From positions 1 through 6,631 of the IMG/VR virus record IMGVR_UViG_2695420412_000003: a stretch of DNA of 6,631 nt. One strand, given 5' to 3'. Below are positions 1 through 6,631 of the stretch, in pieces. How positions within the stretch are numbered: the stretch's first letter is position 1; each line of letters begins with the position of its first letter. Position numbers and translations under genes: made by a program. This DNA comes from a virus (taxonomy: Duplodnaviria; Heunggongvirae; Uroviricota; Caudoviricetes). The notes beneath the pieces were generated by a model. That model was given only the letters and a program-made list of their open reading frames with translations. It was not told the origin of the DNA and searched no databases.

Positions 1-438
1 ATGCGACTGCCACGGCCCCGTGATTTCTCTGCCTTCGCGGGTTTTGAATGGTTCGCGGCGGCATTCATCCATCCACTCGGTAACGCAGATCGGATGATTA
101 CGGTCCTTGCGGTAAATCCGGCATGTACATGATTCATTGTCCTGCTCAAAGTCCATGCCATCAAACTGCTGGTTTTCATTGATGATACGGGACCAGCCAT
201 CAACGCCCACCACCGGAACGATGCCGTTCTGCTTGTCAGGGAAGGCGTAAATTTCTTTCGTCCACGGATTAAGGCCGTACTGGTTGGCGACGATCAGTAA
301 TGCGATGAACTGCGCATCGCTGGCATCACCTTTAAATGCCGTCTGGCGAAGAGTGGTGATCAGTTCCTGTGGGTCGACAGAATCCATGCCGACACGTTCA
401 GCCAGCTTCCCAGCCAGCGTTGCGAGTGCTGTACTCAT
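1..438 (-). CDS. bet: Recombination protein Bet (Red-beta single-strand annealing protein), N-terminal ~146 codons; gene continues beyond the window's left edge
   Basis: Minus-strand translation from the ATG at 436-438 reads MSTALATLAGKLAERVGMDSVDPQELITTLRQTAFKGDASDAQF...REGREITGPWQSH, matching my recollection of lambda Bet. It is open to position 1. It lies 5 nt downstream of the gam stop, as in lambda. Not in the ORF track because it is truncated by the window edge. Confidence 0.9.
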   Translation of the reverse strand, partial: MSTALATLAGKLAERVGMDSVDPQELITTLRQTAFKGDASDAQFIALLIVANQYGLNPWTKEIYAFPDKQNGIVPVVGVDGWSRIINENQQFDGMDFEQDNESCTCRIYRKDRNHPICVTEWMDECRREPFKTREGREITGPWQSH

Positions 439-443
439 CCGTT

Positions 444-740
444 TTATACCTCTGAATCAATATCAACCTGGTGGTGAGCAATGGTTTCAACCATGTACCG
501 GATGTGTTCTGCCATGCGTTCCTGAAACTCAACATCGTCATCAAACGCACGGGTAATGGCTTTTTTGCTGGCCCCGTGGCGTTGCAAATGATCGATGCAT
601 AGCGATTCAAACAGGTGCTGGGGCAGGCCTTTTTCCATGTCGTCTGCCAGTTCTGCCTCTTTCTCTTCACGGGCGATCTGCTGGTAGTGACGCGCCCAGC
701 TCTGAGCCTCAAGACGATCCTGAATGTAATAAGCGTTCAT
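444..740 (-). CDS. gam: Gam, host RecBCD inhibitor (98-aa short form)
   Basis: The 98-aa product [60 protein letters not shown]... matches lambda GamS from memory. An AGGAG Shine-Dalgarno lies about 8 nt upstream of the ATG at 738-740. Confidence 0.9.
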
Positions 741-794
741 GGCTGAACTCCTGAAAATGGCTGTGAAAATATCGCCCGCGAAATGCCAGGCTGA

Positions 795-959
795 TTAGGA
801 AAACAGGAAAGGGGGGTAGTGAATGCTTTTGCTTGATCTCAGTTTCTGTATTAATATCCATTTTTTATAAGCGTCGACGGCCTCACGAAACATCTTTTCA
901 TCGCCAATAAAAGTGGCGATAGTGAATTTAGTCTGGATAGCCATAATTGTTTGATCCAT
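795..959 (-). CDS. kil: Kil-like host cell-division inhibitor (54 aa), using the internal ATG of the 795..1085 ORF
   Basis: The internal ATG at 957-959 is preceded by AGGAG and gives [54 protein letters not shown]. It overlaps the 3' end of cIII by 32 nt in a different frame, the same arrangement as lambda kil/cIII. The sequence identity to lambda Kil is recalled only approximately, and the length (54 aa) differs from my memory of lambda Kil (47 aa). Confidence 0.6.
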
Positions 960-1092
960 TTTTCGGGACTCCTGGCTGATTAAGTATGTCGATAAGGCGT
1001 TTCCATCCGTCACGTAATTTACGGGTAATTCGTTCAAGTAAAGATTCGGAAGGGCAGCCAGCAACAGGCCACCCTGCAATGGCATATTGCAT
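928..1092 (-). CDS. cIII: cIII, FtsH (HflB) protease inhibitor that stabilises cII (54 aa)
   Basis: Hand translation of the minus strand from the ATG at 1090-1092 gives [54 protein letters not shown], then TAA at 928-930. This matches lambda cIII as I recall it. It is absent from the ORF track, presumably because it is short. Confidence 0.85.
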   Translation of the reverse strand: MQYAIAGWPVAGCPSESLLERITRKLRDGWKRLIDILNQPGVPKNGSNNYGYPD

Positions 1093-1158
1093 GGTGTGCT
1101 CCTTATTTATTTACACATAACGAAAACGCCTCTAGTGAAGCGTTATTGGTATGCATAT

Positions 1159-1182
1159 AAAAAAGCCCTCACATTGGAGGGC
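1159..1182 (-). terminator. Intrinsic terminator on the leftward transcript, between the 156-aa orphan gene and cIII
   Basis: Plus strand has gccctc (1165-1170), loop acattg, gagggc (1177-1182), preceded by aaaaaa (1159-1164). On the minus strand this is a 6-bp GC-rich stem followed by a run of six U. Confidence 0.5.
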
Positions 1183-1286
1183 AAAGAAGATTTCCAATAA
1201 TCAGAACAAGTCGGCTCCTGTTTGGTTACGAGCGACATTGCTCCGTGTATTCACTCGTTGGAATGAATACACAGTGCTTATTCGTA

Positions 1287-1757
1287 CTAATAAAACACCC
1301 AGTTTTCTGTTTCTTGGTTGTGTCCAAAGTTATATTCAATATCTGGTATTGATGTATCAATATTCTTCATCCCATCAACAAGAGTTGATACAACAGCCAA
1401 ATCTTGTTTGATTCTCATTAAATGGTATTTCTTCCGGTGCAATAAACTCTCAATGGCAAGTTTCTTCGTTGGGAATGCAAAAGATCTTTCTGCATTTTTT
1501 GCTACTTTCTTAATTGCATATCTATTTCTCCTTTGTTTCCATTCCTGTAACCACTGATTTGGTGCTGGTTTAAAATTAACAATCCAATGCGCAGGAACCA
1601 ACCATGCATAATGCTCTGTCTGATGAAAAGCTATATATTGAAGTGCGAATATTTTTATCCCATCTTCTTCAACTGTCGCCTGGAATCTCCAGAAAACAGG
1701 CATTCCATCATGTTCAGTTTCTGATTCAGGAAAAGGTACGCTCCATGATTTTGTCAT
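1287..1757 (-). CDS. Hypothetical protein, 156 aa, no family recognised; accessory ('moron') candidate in the N-cIII interval
   Basis: Complete ORF with a GAGGTGA Shine-Dalgarno about 5 nt upstream of the ATG at 1755-1757. The region is visibly AT-rich relative to the flanking lambda-like genes. An intrinsic terminator lies downstream. The plus-strand ORFs overlapping it look like antisense artefacts. Confidence 0.7.
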   Translation of the reverse strand: MTKSWSVPFPESETEHDGMPVFWRFQATVEEDGIKIFALQYIAFHQTEHYAWLVPAHWIVNFKPAPNQWLQEWKQRRNRYAIKKVAKNAERSFAFPTKKLAIESLLHRKKYHLMRIKQDLAVVSTLVDGMKNIDTSIPDIEYNFGHNQETENWVFY

Positions 1758-1815
1758 ATCTCACCTCAAATAAGTGGTTTGCTGCCTAATTTCATTTTCT
1801 GGCGACCAACACAAG

Positions 1816-2088
1816 TCACCTCGCCGTCAGTTGTTTTGATTTCCGGTAGCCTGCCGCGTAAAGAGCTACGTTCGGAAGACAAGTTGAACCTTCATATTTT
1901 CTGGTCAACGTTGTCAGAGTTATAACTTCTGCTCTCATTGCTGGTTTGCGCTTGCATTGCAAGACCACTCGTGAAGGGGTTGGCCTGTGTAGCTTGTCGG
2001 AGCTGATCGCCTCCTGACTTTGCAGATTTGCGCGACGAGCTCTACGGCGAGAAGCTGCGGTGCCTTTAAATTCTGTTTTTCTGGACAT
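1816..2088 (-). CDS. N: N-family transcription antiterminator (91 aa from the internal ATG of the 1816..2160 ORF)
   Basis: The ATG at 2086-2088 is preceded by GGGAGGA. The N-terminus MSRKTEFKGTAASRRRARRANLQSQEA carries an arginine-rich motif typical of lambdoid N proteins and resembles the phage 21 class rather than lambda. The gene sits directly downstream of a nutL-like boxA/boxB, in the canonical position. Confidence 0.7.
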   Translation of the reverse strand: MSRKTEFKGTAASRRRARRANLQSQEAISSDKLHRPTPSRVVLQCKRKPAMRAEVITLTTLTRKYEGSTCLPNVALYAAGYRKSKQLTAR

Positions 2089-2186
2089 GGATTCCTCCCG
2101 AATAAACTTTGGCGATGCAATCTCGAAGCTCCTCCTGAGACGGTTGCTTCGGCATTGCATCCCACAGCTTATGTGGTTGGGTGATC

Positions 2187-2231
2187 TGGCTTTTCAGCCA
2201 CGTAGTCGAGAGTCGACGTTGTTTAAAGAGC
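2187..2231 (-). promoter_or_regulatory. nutL-like site: boxA, spacer hairpin, boxB (read on the minus strand)
   Basis: Minus strand reads GCTCTTTAAACAACG (boxA-like; plus 2223-2231), then a spacer with a GTCGA/TCGAC hairpin, then TGGC-TGAAAA-GCCA (boxB-like stem-loop; plus 2187-2200). The same architecture recurs at nutR (4866-4911) with a compensatory change in the boxB stem. Confidence 0.55.
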
Positions 2232-2277
2232 CTGCCAGTCTGTTCCATTTGGCTTCCAGCGTCCTGCTGACGGTTAA

Positions 2278-2320
2278 ATAGTACGATATGTGCTTTACAA
2301 GATCAATACAATTTGTTGTA
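2278..2320 (-). promoter_or_regulatory. Candidate pL promoter with overlapping oL operator(s)
   Basis: Minus strand shows TTGATC (plus 2301-2306) as a -35, a 17-nt spacer, then TACTAT (plus 2278-2283) as a -10. This places the transcription start about 45 nt upstream of boxA. An adjacent inverted repeat TACAA-N4-TTGTA (2307-2320) shares the TTGTA/TACA motif found in the cI-cro intergenic region. Assigned by eye only. Confidence 0.3.
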
Positions 2321-2493
2321 AGTTGGCGTGGTTTTTTATAACGCTTTGTATTTAATAGTGTTGTTTTTTAGCGTGGATGTATTGTCTCGGCGATGTAAGG
2401 AGAGATCAGAATTGCGTGGTTTAGTGGGTTGCATCTATTTATTTTTCAATAAATATAATTGGTTATGTGTTTTTAGGTGGGCGAACGTGAGGC

Positions 2494-2519
2494 AAAGAAA
2501 ACCCGGCGCTGAGGCCGGG
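2494..2519 (-). terminator. Intrinsic terminator ending the cI-to-250-aa-gene leftward operon
   Basis: cccggc (2502-2507), loop gctgag, gccggg (2514-2519); on the minus strand the hairpin is followed by UUUUCUUU (plus 2494-2501). It begins 5 nt after the stop of the 250-aa ORF (2525-2527). Confidence 0.6.
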
Positions 2520-2524
2520 TTGTA

Positions 2525-3277
2525 TTATGCTGCAAGTCTCTTAATCCAAGTCTCTCTTTTGGAGAATGGTAGAACTTGGCTTGATTCATGGAAGAGTAAG
2601 GAGAGTTGTTGCATTTGATCACCAATTGCTTCGCTGTCTATAACAACAAATCTGTTGTTATACTCCTCACTTGAAGCTTTAAGATCAATTAGTTTCCCAA
2701 GCAATGAGTAAGCACTATTCCAGCTTCCTCCGTGTTTCACGCTTGATGTAAAAACGTATTTAGGTATGTCGGTTTTTATTGTTACAGGGACGGTAATTTG
2801 ATGTCCACTCAAGCCATATACGTTTTCACGAAGAGAAAGTGCGTCTCTAAGCTCTGTGTGATATAGATAATCAATAACCATACTTTCAAACTTTTCAGCT
2901 TGAACTGGCTGATACCAGTCTAACGACAAAGTTGATGCGAGTATACCAGCTCTAATTATGTTCGATGTAATCGCACCGACATCCTTTTCTGTTGCCCAAG
3001 CAATGATTTCTCCTCGAGCATTGAGTTCTGCGCCTTCTTTAAGCAGTAATTGTCGTATCTCATCAAGTCGTTTTTTGGTAAGCGAGATCCCTCTTGCCTC
3101 CATATTCATTAAGGCATCGCATCTGTCACTAACTAAATACCTACCATTGACTTCACGGATAAAGGCACCGACATGCTCTCCATCATCACAGTAAGTGAAT
3201 GGACTGATAATTCTCAAGGTCTTGCCTATTGGATGGCATTCGAAACCTAGTTGTGAGATCACTGTTGAGCACATCAT
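2525..3277 (-). CDS. Hypothetical protein, 250 aa, no family recognised; distal gene of the two-gene cassette at the rexAB-equivalent position
   Basis: Complete ORF whose ATG (3275-3277) overlaps the upstream gene's TGA (3274-3276) in an ATGA arrangement, indicating translational coupling. AT-rich. No obvious Walker, nuclease or transmembrane motif seen by eye. Followed immediately by an intrinsic terminator. Confidence 0.75.
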   Translation of the reverse strand: MMCSTVISQLGFECHPIGKTLRIISPFTYCDDGEHVGAFIREVNGRYLVSDRCDALMNMEARGISLTKKRLDEIRQLLLKEGAELNARGEIIAWATEKDVGAITSNIIRAGILASTLSLDWYQPVQAEKFESMVIDYLYHTELRDALSLRENVYGLSGHQITVPVTIKTDIPKYVFTSSVKHGGSWNSAYSLLGKLIDLKASSEEYNNRFVVIDSEAIGDQMQQLSLLFHESSQVLPFSKRETWIKRLAA

Positions 3278-3831
3278 ATTCCAAACCCCATTTGCCCCGA
3301 CTCATCTTCAAGCGGTAAAGGTATTCTCCCAGAGTAAGTTATGTTCAGATGTTTACAGAAGTAATTCCAATACCCTACCAGGTCATCTGGGTTTATGTCA
3401 TCTTCGATTGGAAACGCTATTCTATCACTATAGTATCCAGCTTCTTCATAGTATACATGGTAGTGAGCACCGTAAATGATATCTTGGTACTTCGGATGAT
3501 CGACCTTGTAACTATTCGTGTGTTTGTCAAAGTGATAGGTATCTACCGCGAAAACCCTCTTGTTATGATAGAAAGCAATAATATTTATTTTAGGGTAAGA
3601 AATCGGGTCATCAGGTTCTGAATCCTGATCTGGTTTCCATTTCAGTTCAAACTTTAGCCCTTGTATAGGTATACAATCCTCATCCAAGGGGATGATATGA
3701 GCTTGTAGCCACATATCAGAGCGACTTGGTTTCTGTTTCCATTTAACGCCAGAAAAGTTAACTATTTTTTTACAATAAAGTACTTTATCAACTTCTACTT
3801 GGCTTGGCTGATAATCATCTATTTTTGCCAA
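3274..3831 (-). CDS. Hypothetical acidic Tyr/His/Asp-rich protein, up to 185 aa, no family recognised; proximal gene of the rex-position cassette
   Basis: The ORF opens 39 nt downstream of the cI stop. The first codon in the track is TTG (3829-3831) with a GGGCGG-like Shine-Dalgarno about 8 nt upstream. The first in-frame ATG is at codon 40 and has no Shine-Dalgarno, so the start is uncertain. Coding-like composition continues from 3831. Confidence 0.65.
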   Translation of the reverse strand: MAKIDDYQPSQVEVDKVLYCKKIVNFSGVKWKQKPSRSDMWLQAHIIPLDEDCIPIQGLKFELKWKPDQDSEPDDPISYPKINIIAFYHNKRVFAVDTYHFDKHTNSYKVDHPKYQDIIYGAHYHVYYEEAGYYSDRIAFPIEDDINPDDLVGYWNYFCKHLNITYSGRIPLPLEDESGQMGFGI

Positions 3832-3870
3832 TGTTTACCGCCCTGTAAATTGTAGATAAAAGTGGTTTCA

Positions 3871-4566
3871 TCACCCAAACGTCTCTTCAGGCCATTGGCT
3901 GGCGATAACTTTCCCCACAACGGAACAACTCTCATTGCATGGGATCATTGGGTATTGTGGGTTTAGTGGCTGTAGAAACACCTGACCGCTATCCCTGATC
4001 AGTTTCTTGAAGGTAAATTCATCACCACCAAGTCTGGCTATGCAGAAATCGCCGGGCTCAACAGCTTGCTCAGGGTCAACCAGAATTAACATCCCGTCAG
4101 GAAAGCTGGGTTTGGAACCTGTTGGTGCGGTCATTGAGTTACCTTCAACCTCAAGCCAGAATGCAGAGTCACTGGCTTTTTTGGTTGTGCTTACCAATCT
4201 CTCCGCATCGCCTTTGGTAAAGGTTCTGAGTTCTGGAGAGAACATCCCAGCCTGAACATGAGAAAAAACAGGGTACTCATATTGTTTTTTAACTGGGGCC
4301 GATGAGTATTCGCCAACAGGTGAAAATGTCCCGTCGTGGTTGAATGATATGTTATCAATACCAAGGTATTTAAACACCACACCAATATCACTAAGAGATG
4401 GATGACGAGATCCGCGCAACCAGTGTCCAATCCCACCCTGCGTCATACCTAGCTCTTCGGCTAACTTCTCTTGAGTTATGCCGAGCTCTTTCATTCTGGA
4501 TCTAGCCAGTTCATACCATTTCATTTTCATGTCCTTATTATTACGCTTTGTACTGGAATCATCCAT
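3871..4566 (-). CDS. cI: cI-type prophage repressor: heterologous N-terminal HTH domain fused to a lambda-identical LexA-like S24 autocleavage domain
   Basis: From about [28 protein letters not shown]... to ...[12 protein letters not shown] the C-terminal half matches lambda cI as I recall it, including the GNSM serine motif. The N-terminal part ([52 protein letters not shown]...) is a different HTH domain. The ORF track starts at a TTG (4570-4572); I place the start at the ATG at 4564-4566, which has no Shine-Dalgarno and may be leaderless as in lambda pRM. The start is uncertain by a few codons. Confidence 0.9.
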
Positions 4567-4639
4567 GCACAATGTGTATTTTTACTTGTATTCGTAAAGT
4601 ACATATTGTATTTTTATTCGTGTTTACTATGGAGGGCAT
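4567..4639. promoter_or_regulatory. oR/pR/pRM divergent control region between cI and cro
   Basis: A 73-bp AT-rich intergenic region lies between divergent repressor genes. It contains the inverted repeat TACTT-N9-AAGTA (4583-4601) and TACA-N3-TGTA (4600-4610), plus repeated TTGTATT motifs. Candidate pR elements are TTTACT (4581-4586) and TATTGT (4604-4609); GGAGGG (4631-4636) is the cro Shine-Dalgarno. Confidence 0.5.
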
Positions 4640-4855
4640 ATGAGCAACCTACGAAAATATCGAGAGTCACTGAATATCTCTCAAACAACACTTGCTAAGG
4701 CAGTTGGATGCACACAGGGAGCTATCGGACATTGGGAATCTGGTCGTCGCTTCCCAGACCTTAAAACATGCCGTGCTCTTGTTGCATGCCTAAACAAGTT
4801 AGGCGCAAAAGTCAGTCTTGATGACGTGTTCCCGCCGGAACACAAAGCCGCTTAA
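4640..4855 (+). CDS. cro: Cro-like HTH repressor (71 aa), not lambda Cro
   Basis: It is the first rightward gene, divergent from cI. It carries an HTH-XRE motif (ISQTTLAKAVGCTQGAIGHWESGRRFP) closely paralleling the cI HTH ([27 protein letters not shown]), consistent with shared operator specificity. A GGAGGG Shine-Dalgarno precedes the ATG. Confidence 0.85.
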   Translation: MSNLRKYRESLNISQTTLAKAVGCTQGAIGHWESGRRFPDLKTCRALVACLNKLGAKVSLDDVFPPEHKAA

Positions 4856-4865
4856 TAAGCGGATC

Positions 4866-4911
4866 CGCTCTTTGTAACAACGGACATTCGTCCTACGTCG
4901 CTGAAAAGCGA
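4866..4911 (+). promoter_or_regulatory. nutR-like site: boxA, spacer hairpin, boxB
   Basis: CGCTCTTTGTAACAACG (boxA-like, from 4866), then a GGAC-ATTC-GTCC hairpin (4882-4893), then TCGC-TGAAAA-GCGA (boxB-like, 4898-4911). It lies between cro and cII, as in lambda. Confidence 0.55.
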
Positions 4912-4978
4912 GTTCCAAGATATCTGACCAACTAAGGCCATATGCGTTTCCACGCATACCTTTCAACTAACTATTCAC

Positions 4979-5019
4979 TATTGGAAATCTTAAGAAATGG
5001 AAAGAACAAGTTACAGCAA
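4979..5019 (-). promoter_or_regulatory. pRE-like cII-activated leftward promoter overlapping the cII start
   Basis: Minus strand reads TTGC-TGTAAC-TTGT (plus 5006-5019), then 13 nt, then TAAGAT, then TTCC. This mirrors the lambda pRE layout as I recall it (TTGC-N6-TTGC, about 12 nt, AAGTAT) and spans the complement of the cII ATG. Confidence 0.5.
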
Positions 5020-5293
5020 ACTATCACAGCGTGACGTTGATCGCGCAGAAACAGATTTACTTATCAATCTGTCAGCTATTACCCAGCGCGGTCTGGCAAA
5101 GATGATTGGCTGTCATGAATCGAAGATAAGCAGAACGGACTGGAGATTTATTGCTTCGGTCTTGTGTGCTTTCGGAATGGCATCAGACATAAGTCCGATT
5201 AGCAGGGCTTTTAAGTATGCGCTTGATGGACTCACCAATAAAAAACGCCCGGCGGCAACCGAGCGTTCTGAACAAATCCAGATGGAATTCTGA
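4997..5293 (+). CDS. cII: cII transcriptional activator (98 aa), chimeric: heterologous N-terminal region with lambda-identical C-terminus
   Basis: The C-terminal LTNKKRPAATERSEQIQMEF matches lambda cII as I recall it; the N-terminal about 75 residues differ. Position between nutR and O is canonical. Confidence 0.85.
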   Translation: MERTSYSKLSQRDVDRAETDLLINLSAITQRGLAKMIGCHESKISRTDWRFIASVLCAFGMASDISPISRAFKYALDGLTNKKRPAATERSEQIQMEF

Positions 5294-5314
5294 GGTCATT
5301 ACTGGATCAATCCA
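5238..5314 (-). ncRNA. oop: OOP antisense RNA (antisense to the 3' end of cII), with its intrinsic terminator
   Basis: Minus strand of 5238-5314 reads ...GAUUGAUCCAGUAAUGACCUCAGAAUUCCAUCUGGAUUUGUUCAGAACGCUCGGUUGCCGCCGGGCGUUUUUUAUU, matching lambda OOP RNA from memory, including the GC hairpin and U-tract (plus 5241-5262). Ends are approximate. Confidence 0.7.
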
Positions 5315-5325
5315 CAGGAGTCATT

Positions 5326-6225
5326 ATGACAAATACAGCAAAAATACTCAACTTCTGCAGAGGTAACTTTGCCAAACAGGAGCGTAATGTGGCAGATCTC
5401 GATGATGGTTACGCCAGACTATCAAATATGCTGCTTGAGGCTTATTCAGGCGCAGATCTGACCAAGCGACAGTTTAAAGTGCTGCTTGCCATTCTGCGTA
5501 AAACCTATGGGTGGAATAAACCAATGGACAGAATCACCGATTCTCAACTTAGCGAGATTACAAAGTTACCTGTCAAACGGTGCAATGAAGCCAAGTTAGA
5601 ACTCGTCAGAATGAATATTATCAAGCAGCAAGGCGGCATGTTTGGACCAAATAAAAACATCTCAGAATGGTGTATCCCTCAAAACGAGGGAAAATCCCCT
5701 AAAACGAGGGATAAAACATCCCTCAAATTGGGGGATTGCTATCCCTCAAAACAGGGGGACACAAAAGACACTATTACAAAAGAAAAAAGAAAAGATTATT
5801 CGTCAGAGAATTCTGGCGAATCCTCTGACCAGCCAGAAAACGATCTTTCTGTGGTTAAACCGGATGCTGCAATTCAGAGCGGCAGCAAGTGGGGAACAGC
5901 AGAAGACCTGACCGCCGCAGAGTGGATGTTTGACATGGTGAAGACCATCGCGCCATCAGCCAGAAAACCGAATTTTGCTGGGTGGGCTAACGATATCCGC
6001 CTGATGCGTGAACGTGACGGACGTAACCACCGCGATATGTGTGTGCTTTTCCGCTGGGCCTGCCAGGACAACTTCTGGTCCGGTAACGTGCTGAGTCCGG
6101 CCAAACTCCGCGACAAGTGGACTCAGCTCGAAATCAACCGTAACAAGCAACAGGCAGTCGTGACAGCCAGCAAACCAAAACTCGACCTGACAAACACAGA
6201 CTGGATTTACGGGGTGGATCTATGA
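5326..6225 (+). CDS. O: Replication initiator protein O (299 aa)
   Basis: The 299-aa product MTNTAKILNF...WIYGVDL matches lambda O from memory, with at most a few substitutions. It contains the origin iterons and its stop overlaps the P start (ATGA at 6222-6225). Confidence 0.95.
   Translation: MTNTAKILNFCRGNFAKQERNVADLDDGYARLSNMLLEAYSGADLTKRQFKVLLAILRKTYGWNKPMDRITDSQLSEITKLPVKRCNEAKLELVRMNIIKQQGGMFGPNKNISEWCIPQNEGKSPKTRDKTSLKLGDCYPSKQGDTKDTITKEKRKDYSSENSGESSDQPENDLSVVKPDAAIQSGSKWGTAEDLTAAEWMFDMVKTIAPSARKPNFAGWANDIRLMRERDGRNHRDMCVLFRWACQDNFWSGNVLSPAKLRDKWTQLEINRNKQQAVVTASKPKLDLTNTDWIYGVDL
5674..5800. repeat. Lambda-type replication origin inside O: four ~18-19 bp iterons plus an adjacent AT-rich unwinding region
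   Basis: Iterons atccctcaaaacgaggga (5674-5691), atcccctaaaacgagggat (5694-5712), atccctcaaattgggggat (5718-5736) and atccctcaaaacagggggac (5741-5760), each an imperfect inverted repeat. They are followed by the A-rich tract acaaaagacactattacaaaagaaaaaagaaaag (5761-5794). Confidence 0.85.
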
Positions 6226-6631
6226 AAAACATCGCCGCACAGATGGTTAACTTTGACCGTGAGCAGATGCGTCGGATCGCCAACAACATGCCGGAACAGT
6301 ACGACGAAAAGCCGCAGGTACAGCAGGTAGCGCAGATCATCAACGGTGTGTTCAGCCAGTTACTGGCAACTTTCCCGGCGAGCCTGGCTAACCGTGACCA
6401 GAACGAACTGAACGAAATCCGCCGCCAGTGGGTTCTGGCTTTCCGGGAAAACGGGATCACCACAATGGAACAGGTTAACGCAGGAATGCGCGTAGCCCGT
6501 CGGCAGAATCGACCATTTCTGCCATCACCCGGGCAGTTTGTTGCATGGTGCCGGGAAGAAGCATCCGTTATCGCCGGACTGCCAAACGTCAGCGAGCTGG
6601 TTGATATGGTTTACGAGTATTGCCGGAAGCG
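6222..6631 (+). CDS. P: Replication protein P (DnaB helicase loader), N-terminal ~136 codons; continues beyond the window's right edge
   Basis: The ATG at 6222-6224 overlaps the O stop. Translation MKNIAAQMVNFDREQMRRIANNMPEQYDEKPQVQQVAQIINGVFSQLLATFPASLANRDQNELNEIRRQW... matches lambda P from memory and is open to the window end. Confidence 0.95.
   Translation, partial: MKNIAAQMVNFDREQMRRIANNMPEQYDEKPQVQQVAQIINGVFSQLLATFPASLANRDQNELNEIRRQWVLAFRENGITTMEQVNAGMRVARRQNRPFLPSPGQFVAWCREEASVIAGLPNVSELVDMVYEYCRK

Follow-up and report, generated by a model that had tools for sequence, protein, structure and literature searches.

How many pieces of different descent make up a lambdoid immunity region, and where they are joined, is the question raised by the window studied here, a stretch of 6,631 nt formed by positions 1 to 6,631 of the viral record IMGVR_UViG_2695420412_000003. 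An original prediction, made from the sequence alone, had placed a mosaic immunity region at 3871-5293, a span which does run from the stop codon of the repressor gene cI to that of cII, and had proposed that a single immunity-specificity core was exchanged through breakpoints inside both genes. Alignment with lambda and other lambdoid phages bears out the breakpoints, with sharp steps at 4281/4282 and 5230/5231 and no uniform divergence, but a third boundary at 4864/4865 contradicts the idea of one swapped core. The window very probably comes from a natural lambdoid phage or prophage, of which it forms the early control region, with an immunity determinant of the VT2-Sakai / Stx2 II / 1717 / ev207 type, and its mosaic immunity region is real, ordinary and already known. 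The features discussed are collected in Table 1.

When the window was compared with lambda by blastn, homology was confined to 1-1277, 2400-2521, 3870-4281 and 5231-6631, the third of these matching lambda 37226-37637 at 93.4% identity and the last matching lambda 38591-39991 at 98.1%; the flanks carrying bet-cIII and O-P are 97.5-98% lambda. In windows of 30 bases, identity to lambda is 30-37% left of 3871, 83-97% over 3871-4290 and 27-40% from 4291, the edges of the island at 3870/3871 and 4281/4282 being sharp. The left edge is the cI stop codon. The right edge falls on the base that opens the codon for lambda Y101, ten residues ahead of the A111-G112 cleavage site and within the linker between the domains; the conserved piece of cI thus begins at precisely the residue, 101, with which the crystallised autonomous self-cleaving fragment 101-229 (PDB 2ho0/2hnf) also begins. 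The C-terminal part of CI also matches PDB 3bdn (lambda CI) and 2ho0 among known structures. From Y101 to the end, 135 of the 136 residues are those of lambda CI, the sole change being W129L. An S24 domain was recognized in this part (Pfam Peptidase_S24, E=1.3e-28), and the motifs VQA/GMF, EGNSM and FTFKK are the same as those of lambda at A111-G112, S149 and K192, which we take to be the cleavage site and the Ser/Lys dyad. RecA-stimulated self-cleavage would be expected as in lambda, because from residue 101 onward the protein departs from lambda CI at one position only and keeps both the Ala-Gly site and the dyad. The earlier claim that this domain and the last ~20 residues of CII are identical to lambda holds for the proteins, apart from W129L, but not for the cI DNA, in which 27 base differences were counted, 25 of them at wobble positions.

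The right-hand joint lies at the first base of cII codon 79. Read in register with lambda, the right arm is near random over 5150-5230 and has six mismatches over 5231-5420, only one of which (5287) is within cII, and the last 20 residues of CII (LTNKKRPAATERSEQIQMEF) are the same as in lambda. A putative oop RNA overlaps this tail: a promoter, a transcript of ~77 nt, a terminator and the overlap with cII can all be recognized in a region 98% identical to lambda, and the oop-like transcript of ~80 nt is predicted to fold at -28.4 kcal/mol (z=-3.4). No oop model exists in Rfam, and a scan for oop against that database gave a single real match, to the cIII thermoregulator. The oop RNA of lambda (38599-38675) overlaps cII by 55 nt (PMC3349717); by the blastn offset it maps to 5239-5315 of the window, with the junction 8 bp past the oop 3' end. 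Homology between lambda and lambda imm21 likewise starts at lambda 38591, and the cII junction is therefore the right boundary classically described for imm21. Overlap with oop, and not a random crossover within the gene, accounts for the conservation of the cII tail. On the other side of oop lies a 33-bp box that is conserved among lambdoid phages (PMC3349717). The homology of VT2-Sakai, HK97, mEp234, HK022 and 683R2 to the window all ends at 5333, the end of this box, which serves non-lambda replication modules as their right-hand boundary.

Between the two joints the sequence belongs elsewhere. No nucleotide homology to lambda was found by blastn in the DNA for the CI N-terminal domain, in which HTH_3 was recognized at residues 23-70 (E=2e-10), the N-terminal helix-turn-helix of a lambdoid CI repressor. 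This domain has 96.8-97.9% amino acid identity to repressors of the VT2-Sakai type, cro has 97-99% nucleotide identity to phages of the same type, and the stretch from the cI N-terminal domain to the cII body (4282-5230) has 96.9-97.4%. Over the full 1,423 bp, cI-OR-cro-cII is 96-99.5% identical to VT2-Sakai, Stx2 II, 1717 and ev207. The near-identity of the cI N-terminal domain, of the operators in the right and left operator regions (OR and OL) and of cro therefore identifies the VT2-Sakai immunity type, as found by the alignment with lambdoid phages that had been proposed. The cI-cII region is covered to 80% or more, at 96-99.5% identity, in 57 phage records, and of 5,426 complete E. coli genomes 202 carry 80% or more of the window.

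Cro, of 71 residues, is an all-helical protein of HTH_3 type (E=4.2e-12), unlike lambda Cro, to which no meaningful alignment was obtained. The recognition-helix motif TQGxIGHW that CI and Cro had been said to share was confirmed as TQGGIGHW in CI and TQGAIGHW in Cro; the two proteins, both matching HTH_3, can be aligned over 62 residues with 35% identity (E=1e-12). Cro also has a full-length match (E=4.5e-17) to PDB 28tn_A, a 'lambda repressor-like protein', so a close structural template for it may exist.

The operators had been predicted to differ from those of lambda, and by sequence they do. Comparison of OR with OL gave three matched pairs, from which a 15-bp pseudo-palindrome, A(R)TACA-N3-TGTA(Y)T, was derived, with sites starting at 4540, 4566, 4598, 2280, 2305 and 2338. 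This comparison was more informative than a repeat search within OR, which gave weak pairs only, and the 15-bp pattern replaced a shorter guess, TACN5GTA, that was not enriched (25 matches against 20 expected). In its degenerate form the pattern has six matches against 0.48 expected, five in OR/OL and one further inside cro. The six predicted sites find independent support, since they coincide with the annotated 17-bp 'putative operators' of the VT2-Sakai record AP000422, since the substitutions of 683R2 (93% identical) spare the half-sites and sit in the central triplet or between sites, and since the operator consensus predicted for the epsilon34 repressor, WTACRAWWTGTAT (PMC2629481), agrees with them in a common architecture, ATACA-N3-TGTAT. 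The match inside cro (AAAACATGCCGTGCT, 4763-4777) is kept in all VT2-Sakai-type phages checked and may reflect chance or coding conservation.

The window would thus hold a divergent cI/cro pair, a tripartite operator and a second operator set at PL. The predicted targets of CI are three 15-bp sites in each of OR and OL; by binding them it would act as a repressor at PR and PL and as an autoregulator at PRM, which is probably leaderless, and Cro, with its near-identical recognition helix, would compete for the same sites. The probable cI start is the ATG at 4530 (MKMKWYEL...). The open reading frame (ORF) stays open upstream to ATG 4566 and TTG 4572, and the leaderless start at 4530 appears likelier than these because MKM(K/N)WY is kept in g341c, OR3 lies upstream and the PRM geometry is lambda-like, the centres of OR3 and OR2 being at ~-17 and ~-43 from this ATG. 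The annotation of AP000422 starts cI two codons further in.

Against lambda alone, exactly one heterologous block is seen, between 4282 and 5230, and this, with flanks so close to lambda, is what a single double crossover would leave had it placed one contiguous core (cI N-terminal domain, operators, cro and most of cII) in a lambda backbone. Such a history is nevertheless improbable, for the two parts of the block on either side of 4864/4865 are distributed differently. Among eight reference phages, homology stops at 4281 in lambda, HK97 and mEp234 and at 4855 in 683R2, and starts at 4865 in HK97, 933W and mEp234, at 4965-4969 in imm21 and HK022 and at 5231 in lambda and 683R2. At least two modules are therefore present, 4282-4864 (cI N-terminal domain, OR and cro) and 4865-5230 (nutR and cII body). 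683R2 has the same core with a lambda-type cII, and HK97 and mEp234 have a cI-cro segment that is 97.7% lambda with the cII body of the window. Given these separate distributions, the specificity core comprises 4282-4864 only; the set of cI N-terminal domain, operators and cro stands as originally proposed, and the cII body falls outside it. In addition, divergence from lambda is threefold greater in the cI C-terminal domain (6.6%) than in O/P (1.9%, blastn), so that the flanks do not share one common history, and the N, OL and rex-position segments are non-lambda too. Both marks of a mosaic, step-wise breakpoints and recurring boundaries between segments of discordant relatedness, were found.

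The nutR-cII body forms a module of its own and is widely shared. In 40-bp windows the cII body is 88-100% identical to 933W, mEp234 and VT2-Sakai, compared with 18-60% to lambda, and CII matches Phage_CII (PF05269) over the full profile (positions 1-91/91, E=7e-34). A CII-box (TTGCTGTAACTTGT) for PRE may lie at 5006-5019 on the minus strand, a single match that is not significant alone.

Divergence in place without any recombination, the N-terminal domain, operators and cro changing under diversifying selection and the C-terminal domain and cII tail being held by purifying selection, has very little probability. Purifying selection on the C-terminal domain is indeed strong (1 amino acid change against 25 wobble changes), and repressor DNA-binding domains do evolve faster (48% identity against 80% for the C-terminal domain, in comparison with g341c). 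Synonymous sites are not protected by purifying selection, however, and yet the C-terminal DNA is 93% identical to lambda, its synonymous sites far below saturation (25 wobble differences in 136 codons), whereas the adjoining N-terminal DNA is at a random 27-40% within 10 bp of the edge. It is this unsaturated DNA beside DNA of random identity that excludes the explanation for practical purposes. The non-coding flanks step likewise, and the N-terminal domain has relatives of its own (g341c, epsilon34 and phage L), unrelated to that of lambda. An artefact, either of assembly (a chimera) or of the laboratory (a hybrid such as lambda imm21 or imm434), can be set aside almost entirely, for although the right junction coincides with that of lambda imm21, dozens of wild phages and prophages sequenced independently of one another share this arrangement, as do the 202 complete E. 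coli genomes, and the cI junction fits no classical laboratory hybrid examined.

The direction of the exchange in cI can be approached through the identities of the two domains. Those between the window and lambda are 18% (N-terminal) and 99% (C-terminal), between the window and g341c 48% and 80%, between lambda and TL-2011c 56% and 65%, and between lambda and g341c 20% and 81%. The N- and C-terminal domains of lambda CI thus have different nearest relatives, which makes lambda cI the likelier chimera, and the CI of the window is colinear with the g341c/epsilon34 repressors across the junction (PVKKQYEYP compared with PVKPQFEYP). This suggests that the cI of lambda immunity, rather than that of the window, may be the recombinant, its C-terminal domain having been acquired from the VT2-Sakai/epsilon34 lineage. 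The C-terminal domain of vB_EcoP-683R2 (683R2), encoded at 4096-4500 of that phage, is 93.4-94.4% identical to those of lambda, HK97 and mEp234 and 91.2% to that of the window, despite the common N-terminal domain. C-terminal alleles are therefore not sorted by N-terminal type, which points to repeated exchange through or within this domain. It was also observed that the repressors of 933W and HK022 have the reverse pattern, with N-terminal domains 45% and C-terminal domains only 20% identical, and this is another domain-level shuffle in lambdoid cI.

The immunity region and its right flank may accordingly be pictured as a patchwork of five segments: the linker and C-terminal domain of cI, of lambda type; the cI N-terminal domain, OR and cro, of VT2-Sakai type; nutR and the cII body, of 933W/21 type; the cII tail, oop and pO, of lambda type; and O and P, of lambda type. 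Conserved segments (the cI C-terminal domain, the oop/pO box and the 120-bp terminator segment at 2400-2521) would serve as shared homology, through which homologous recombination between lambdoid phages would exchange the variable segments, and the same boundaries may recur because only joints at domain or gene boundaries survive selection. Mosaicism at the level of domains and at the oop boundary is textbook for lambdoid phages. As a discovery the region has little weight, the arrangement being already present in GenBank records of 1999-2000, but it is useful as a clean worked example of mosaic joints in cI and cII.

Some observations weigh against parts of this account. The enrichment of the operator pattern is partly circular, as the pattern was derived from the same six sites, and the argument on direction draws on four taxa and presupposes that the domains diverged at a roughly clock-like rate. 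In the phage collection, ~100 records hold the lambda-type C-terminal domain at an identity of at least 90%, of which ~63 (about two-thirds) carry the VT2-Sakai-type N-terminal domain and ~36 that of lambda; the VT2-Sakai-type N-terminal domain was paired only with lambda-family C-terminal domains, and the cI junction is consequently visible only against lambda-immunity phages. HK97 was at first taken as a third N-terminal partner of the lambda-type C-terminal domain, but HK97 and mEp234 are simply lambda-immune, which leaves just two N-terminal types in this combination. Finally, VT2-Sa and lambda are reported to be cross-immune (Fattah et al., 2000, as cited in PMC10742460), and this is not explained by distinct operators alone. 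Heteroimmunity should not be assumed from operators that differ in sequence.

Table 1. Features of the window, arranged by position; the gene layout is that shown by the ORF map, Pfam and the closest annotated phages.
Feature	Coordinates	Strand	Remarks
bet (partial), gam, kil, cIII	1-1154
156-aa ORF	1287-1757	-	phrog_1636, no Pfam match
N	~1819-2091	-
OL/PL	~2280-2352
OL, three predicted operators	2280-2294, 2305-2319, 2338-2352		upstream of N; putative operators in AP000422; half-sites kept in 683R2
Terminator	2500-2521
Two genes in rexB/rexA position	2525-3277 and 3274-3831	-
cI	3871-4530/4566	-
cI 3' part: stop codon, linker from Y101 (lambda numbering), Ala-Gly cleavage site, S24 autocleavage/dimerisation domain; lambda-type allele	3871..4281	-	93.4% nt identity to lambda 37227-37637, sharp edges
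cI 5' part: HTH_3 DNA-binding domain, VT2-Sakai type	4282..4530	-	Pfam HTH_3, g341c similarity
OR3 (predicted), ATTACGCTTTGTACT	4540..4554		14/15 match to OL3 neighbourhood; fits pattern ANNACRNNNYGTNNT; inside 17-bp 'putative operator' of AP000422
OR2 (predicted), TGCACAATGTGTATT	4566..4580		one mismatch to pattern; half-sites kept in 683R2, central bases vary
OR1 (predicted), AGTACATATTGTATT	4598..4612		13/15 match to reverse complement of OL1; top-scoring site; overlaps likely PR -10
cro	4640-4855	+
nutR-like site: boxA CGCTCTTTG(TAACA) and boxB-like hairpin TCGCTGAAAAGCGA; opens nutR-cII module	4866..4911	+	sequence reading; 'putative N-utilization rightward' in AP000422
cII	4997-5293	+
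cII codons 1-78, body of 933W / 21 / VT2-Sakai / mEp234 type	4997..5230	+
cII codons 79-98 and stop, lambda-type tail overlapping oop	5231..5293	+	62/63 nt and 20/20 aa same as lambda
oop-like antisense RNA (putative)	5236..5316	-	intrinsic terminator 5269 to 5242, pO-like promoter 5351 to 5323
33-bp pO/oop 5' box, ACTGGATCAATCCACAGGAGTCATTATGACAAA	5301..5333		matches box quoted in PMC3349717
O, then start of P	5326-6225

The other parts of the window also differ from lambda in places. The two overlapping genes in the rexB/rexA slot match a candidate defence pair of PADLOC, PDC-M24B (E=6e-10, full length) and PDC-M24A (E=5e-4, partial), as well as DUF1828, DUF6978, phrog_1960 and phrog_2017, the phrogs having no known function. 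Between the cI stop codon and the conserved 120-bp segment, which delimit the slot, the cargo varies: rexAB in lambda, stk and others in 933W, hicABC in mEp234, and different genes again in VT2-Sakai. The 2400-2521 island itself is 90% identical to lambda 35708-35826 and 80-93% to HK97, 933W, mEp234 and VT2-Sakai, and ends in a strong minus-strand terminator (2521 to 2500); it probably terminates the PRM operon and marks one more of the mosaic boundaries that recur. N (1755-2160) was found to be mosaic too, its 3' part up to 1881 being 98% identical to HK97 and 933W and its 5' part, with the arginine-rich RNA-binding motif, matching VT2-Sakai-type phages only (93%). At 1154-1820 the ea10-ral-sieB stretch of lambda and PhiR57_1 is absent, and in its place stands the 156-residue ORF, 98% identical to the N-adjoining gene of HK97 (gp45), 933W and 683R2. 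The lambda cIII thermoregulator RNA (RF01804) is intact at 1047-1105 on the minus strand (88.5 bits, E=3e-21).

The closest immunity regions are those of VT2-Sakai/VT2-Sa (AP000422, AP000363), Stx2 II, Stx2-1717, 2851, Nil2 and YYZ-2008, and of the non-Stx ev017, ev207 and PhiR57_1. These relatives have the same six operators, differing just at central or edge bases, and the same junction with a lambda-type C-terminal domain. VT2-Sakai differs from the window in its HK022-type oop/pO allele (75-82% in 5216-5295) and HK022-type O/P, where the window has oop-O-P of lambda type, and in the genes downstream of cI. Further away, the epsilon34 / g341c phages of Salmonella have colinear homologues of cI, cro and cII and the same predicted operator architecture, but are much more diverged, show no identity step along cI and have two annotated sites per operator region. 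The epsilon34 repressor is described as having 80% and 50% relationships to lambda/HK97 and to VT2-Sa/Nil2 (PMC2629481).

The cII body of lambda imm21 (OM418627) is of the same family as that of the window (89.5% nt), with the boundary abutting the oop 3' end (PMC3349717). In phage 21 the cII tail carries one additional codon and, where it overlaps oop, several altered bases, whereas that of the window is identical to lambda save for 1 nt.

With lambda itself (cI at NC_001416 37227-37940) the likeness lies in residues 101-236 of CI, cleavage site and catalytic residues included, and the difference in the operator consensus and in the fold class of Cro, which is of Cro/C1 type in lambda and of HTH_3 type in the window. 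The same contrast of high C-terminal and low N-terminal homology between the CI proteins of VT2-Sa and lambda is attributed to Fattah et al. (2000) in the citation given by PMC10742460. For lambda CI on VT2-Sa operators, apparent dissociation constants (KD) of 3.7-6.4 uM have been reported, compared with 0.2-3 uM on its own operators (PMC10742460). As the dimerisation and cooperativity half of CI is 99% lambda CI and its DNA-binding half is unrelated, it is conceivable, although rather unlikely, that the two repressors would form mixed dimers or cooperative tetramers/octamers in one cell, so that C-terminal cross-talk and not shared operator recognition would underlie the VT2-Sa/lambda cross-immunity, or would alternatively destabilise double lysogens mutually. 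The reading of lambda cI as the recombinant is more probable, if less striking. The comparison bears on possible interactions, through identical C-terminal domains, between heteroimmune repressors in polylysogens such as O157:H7.

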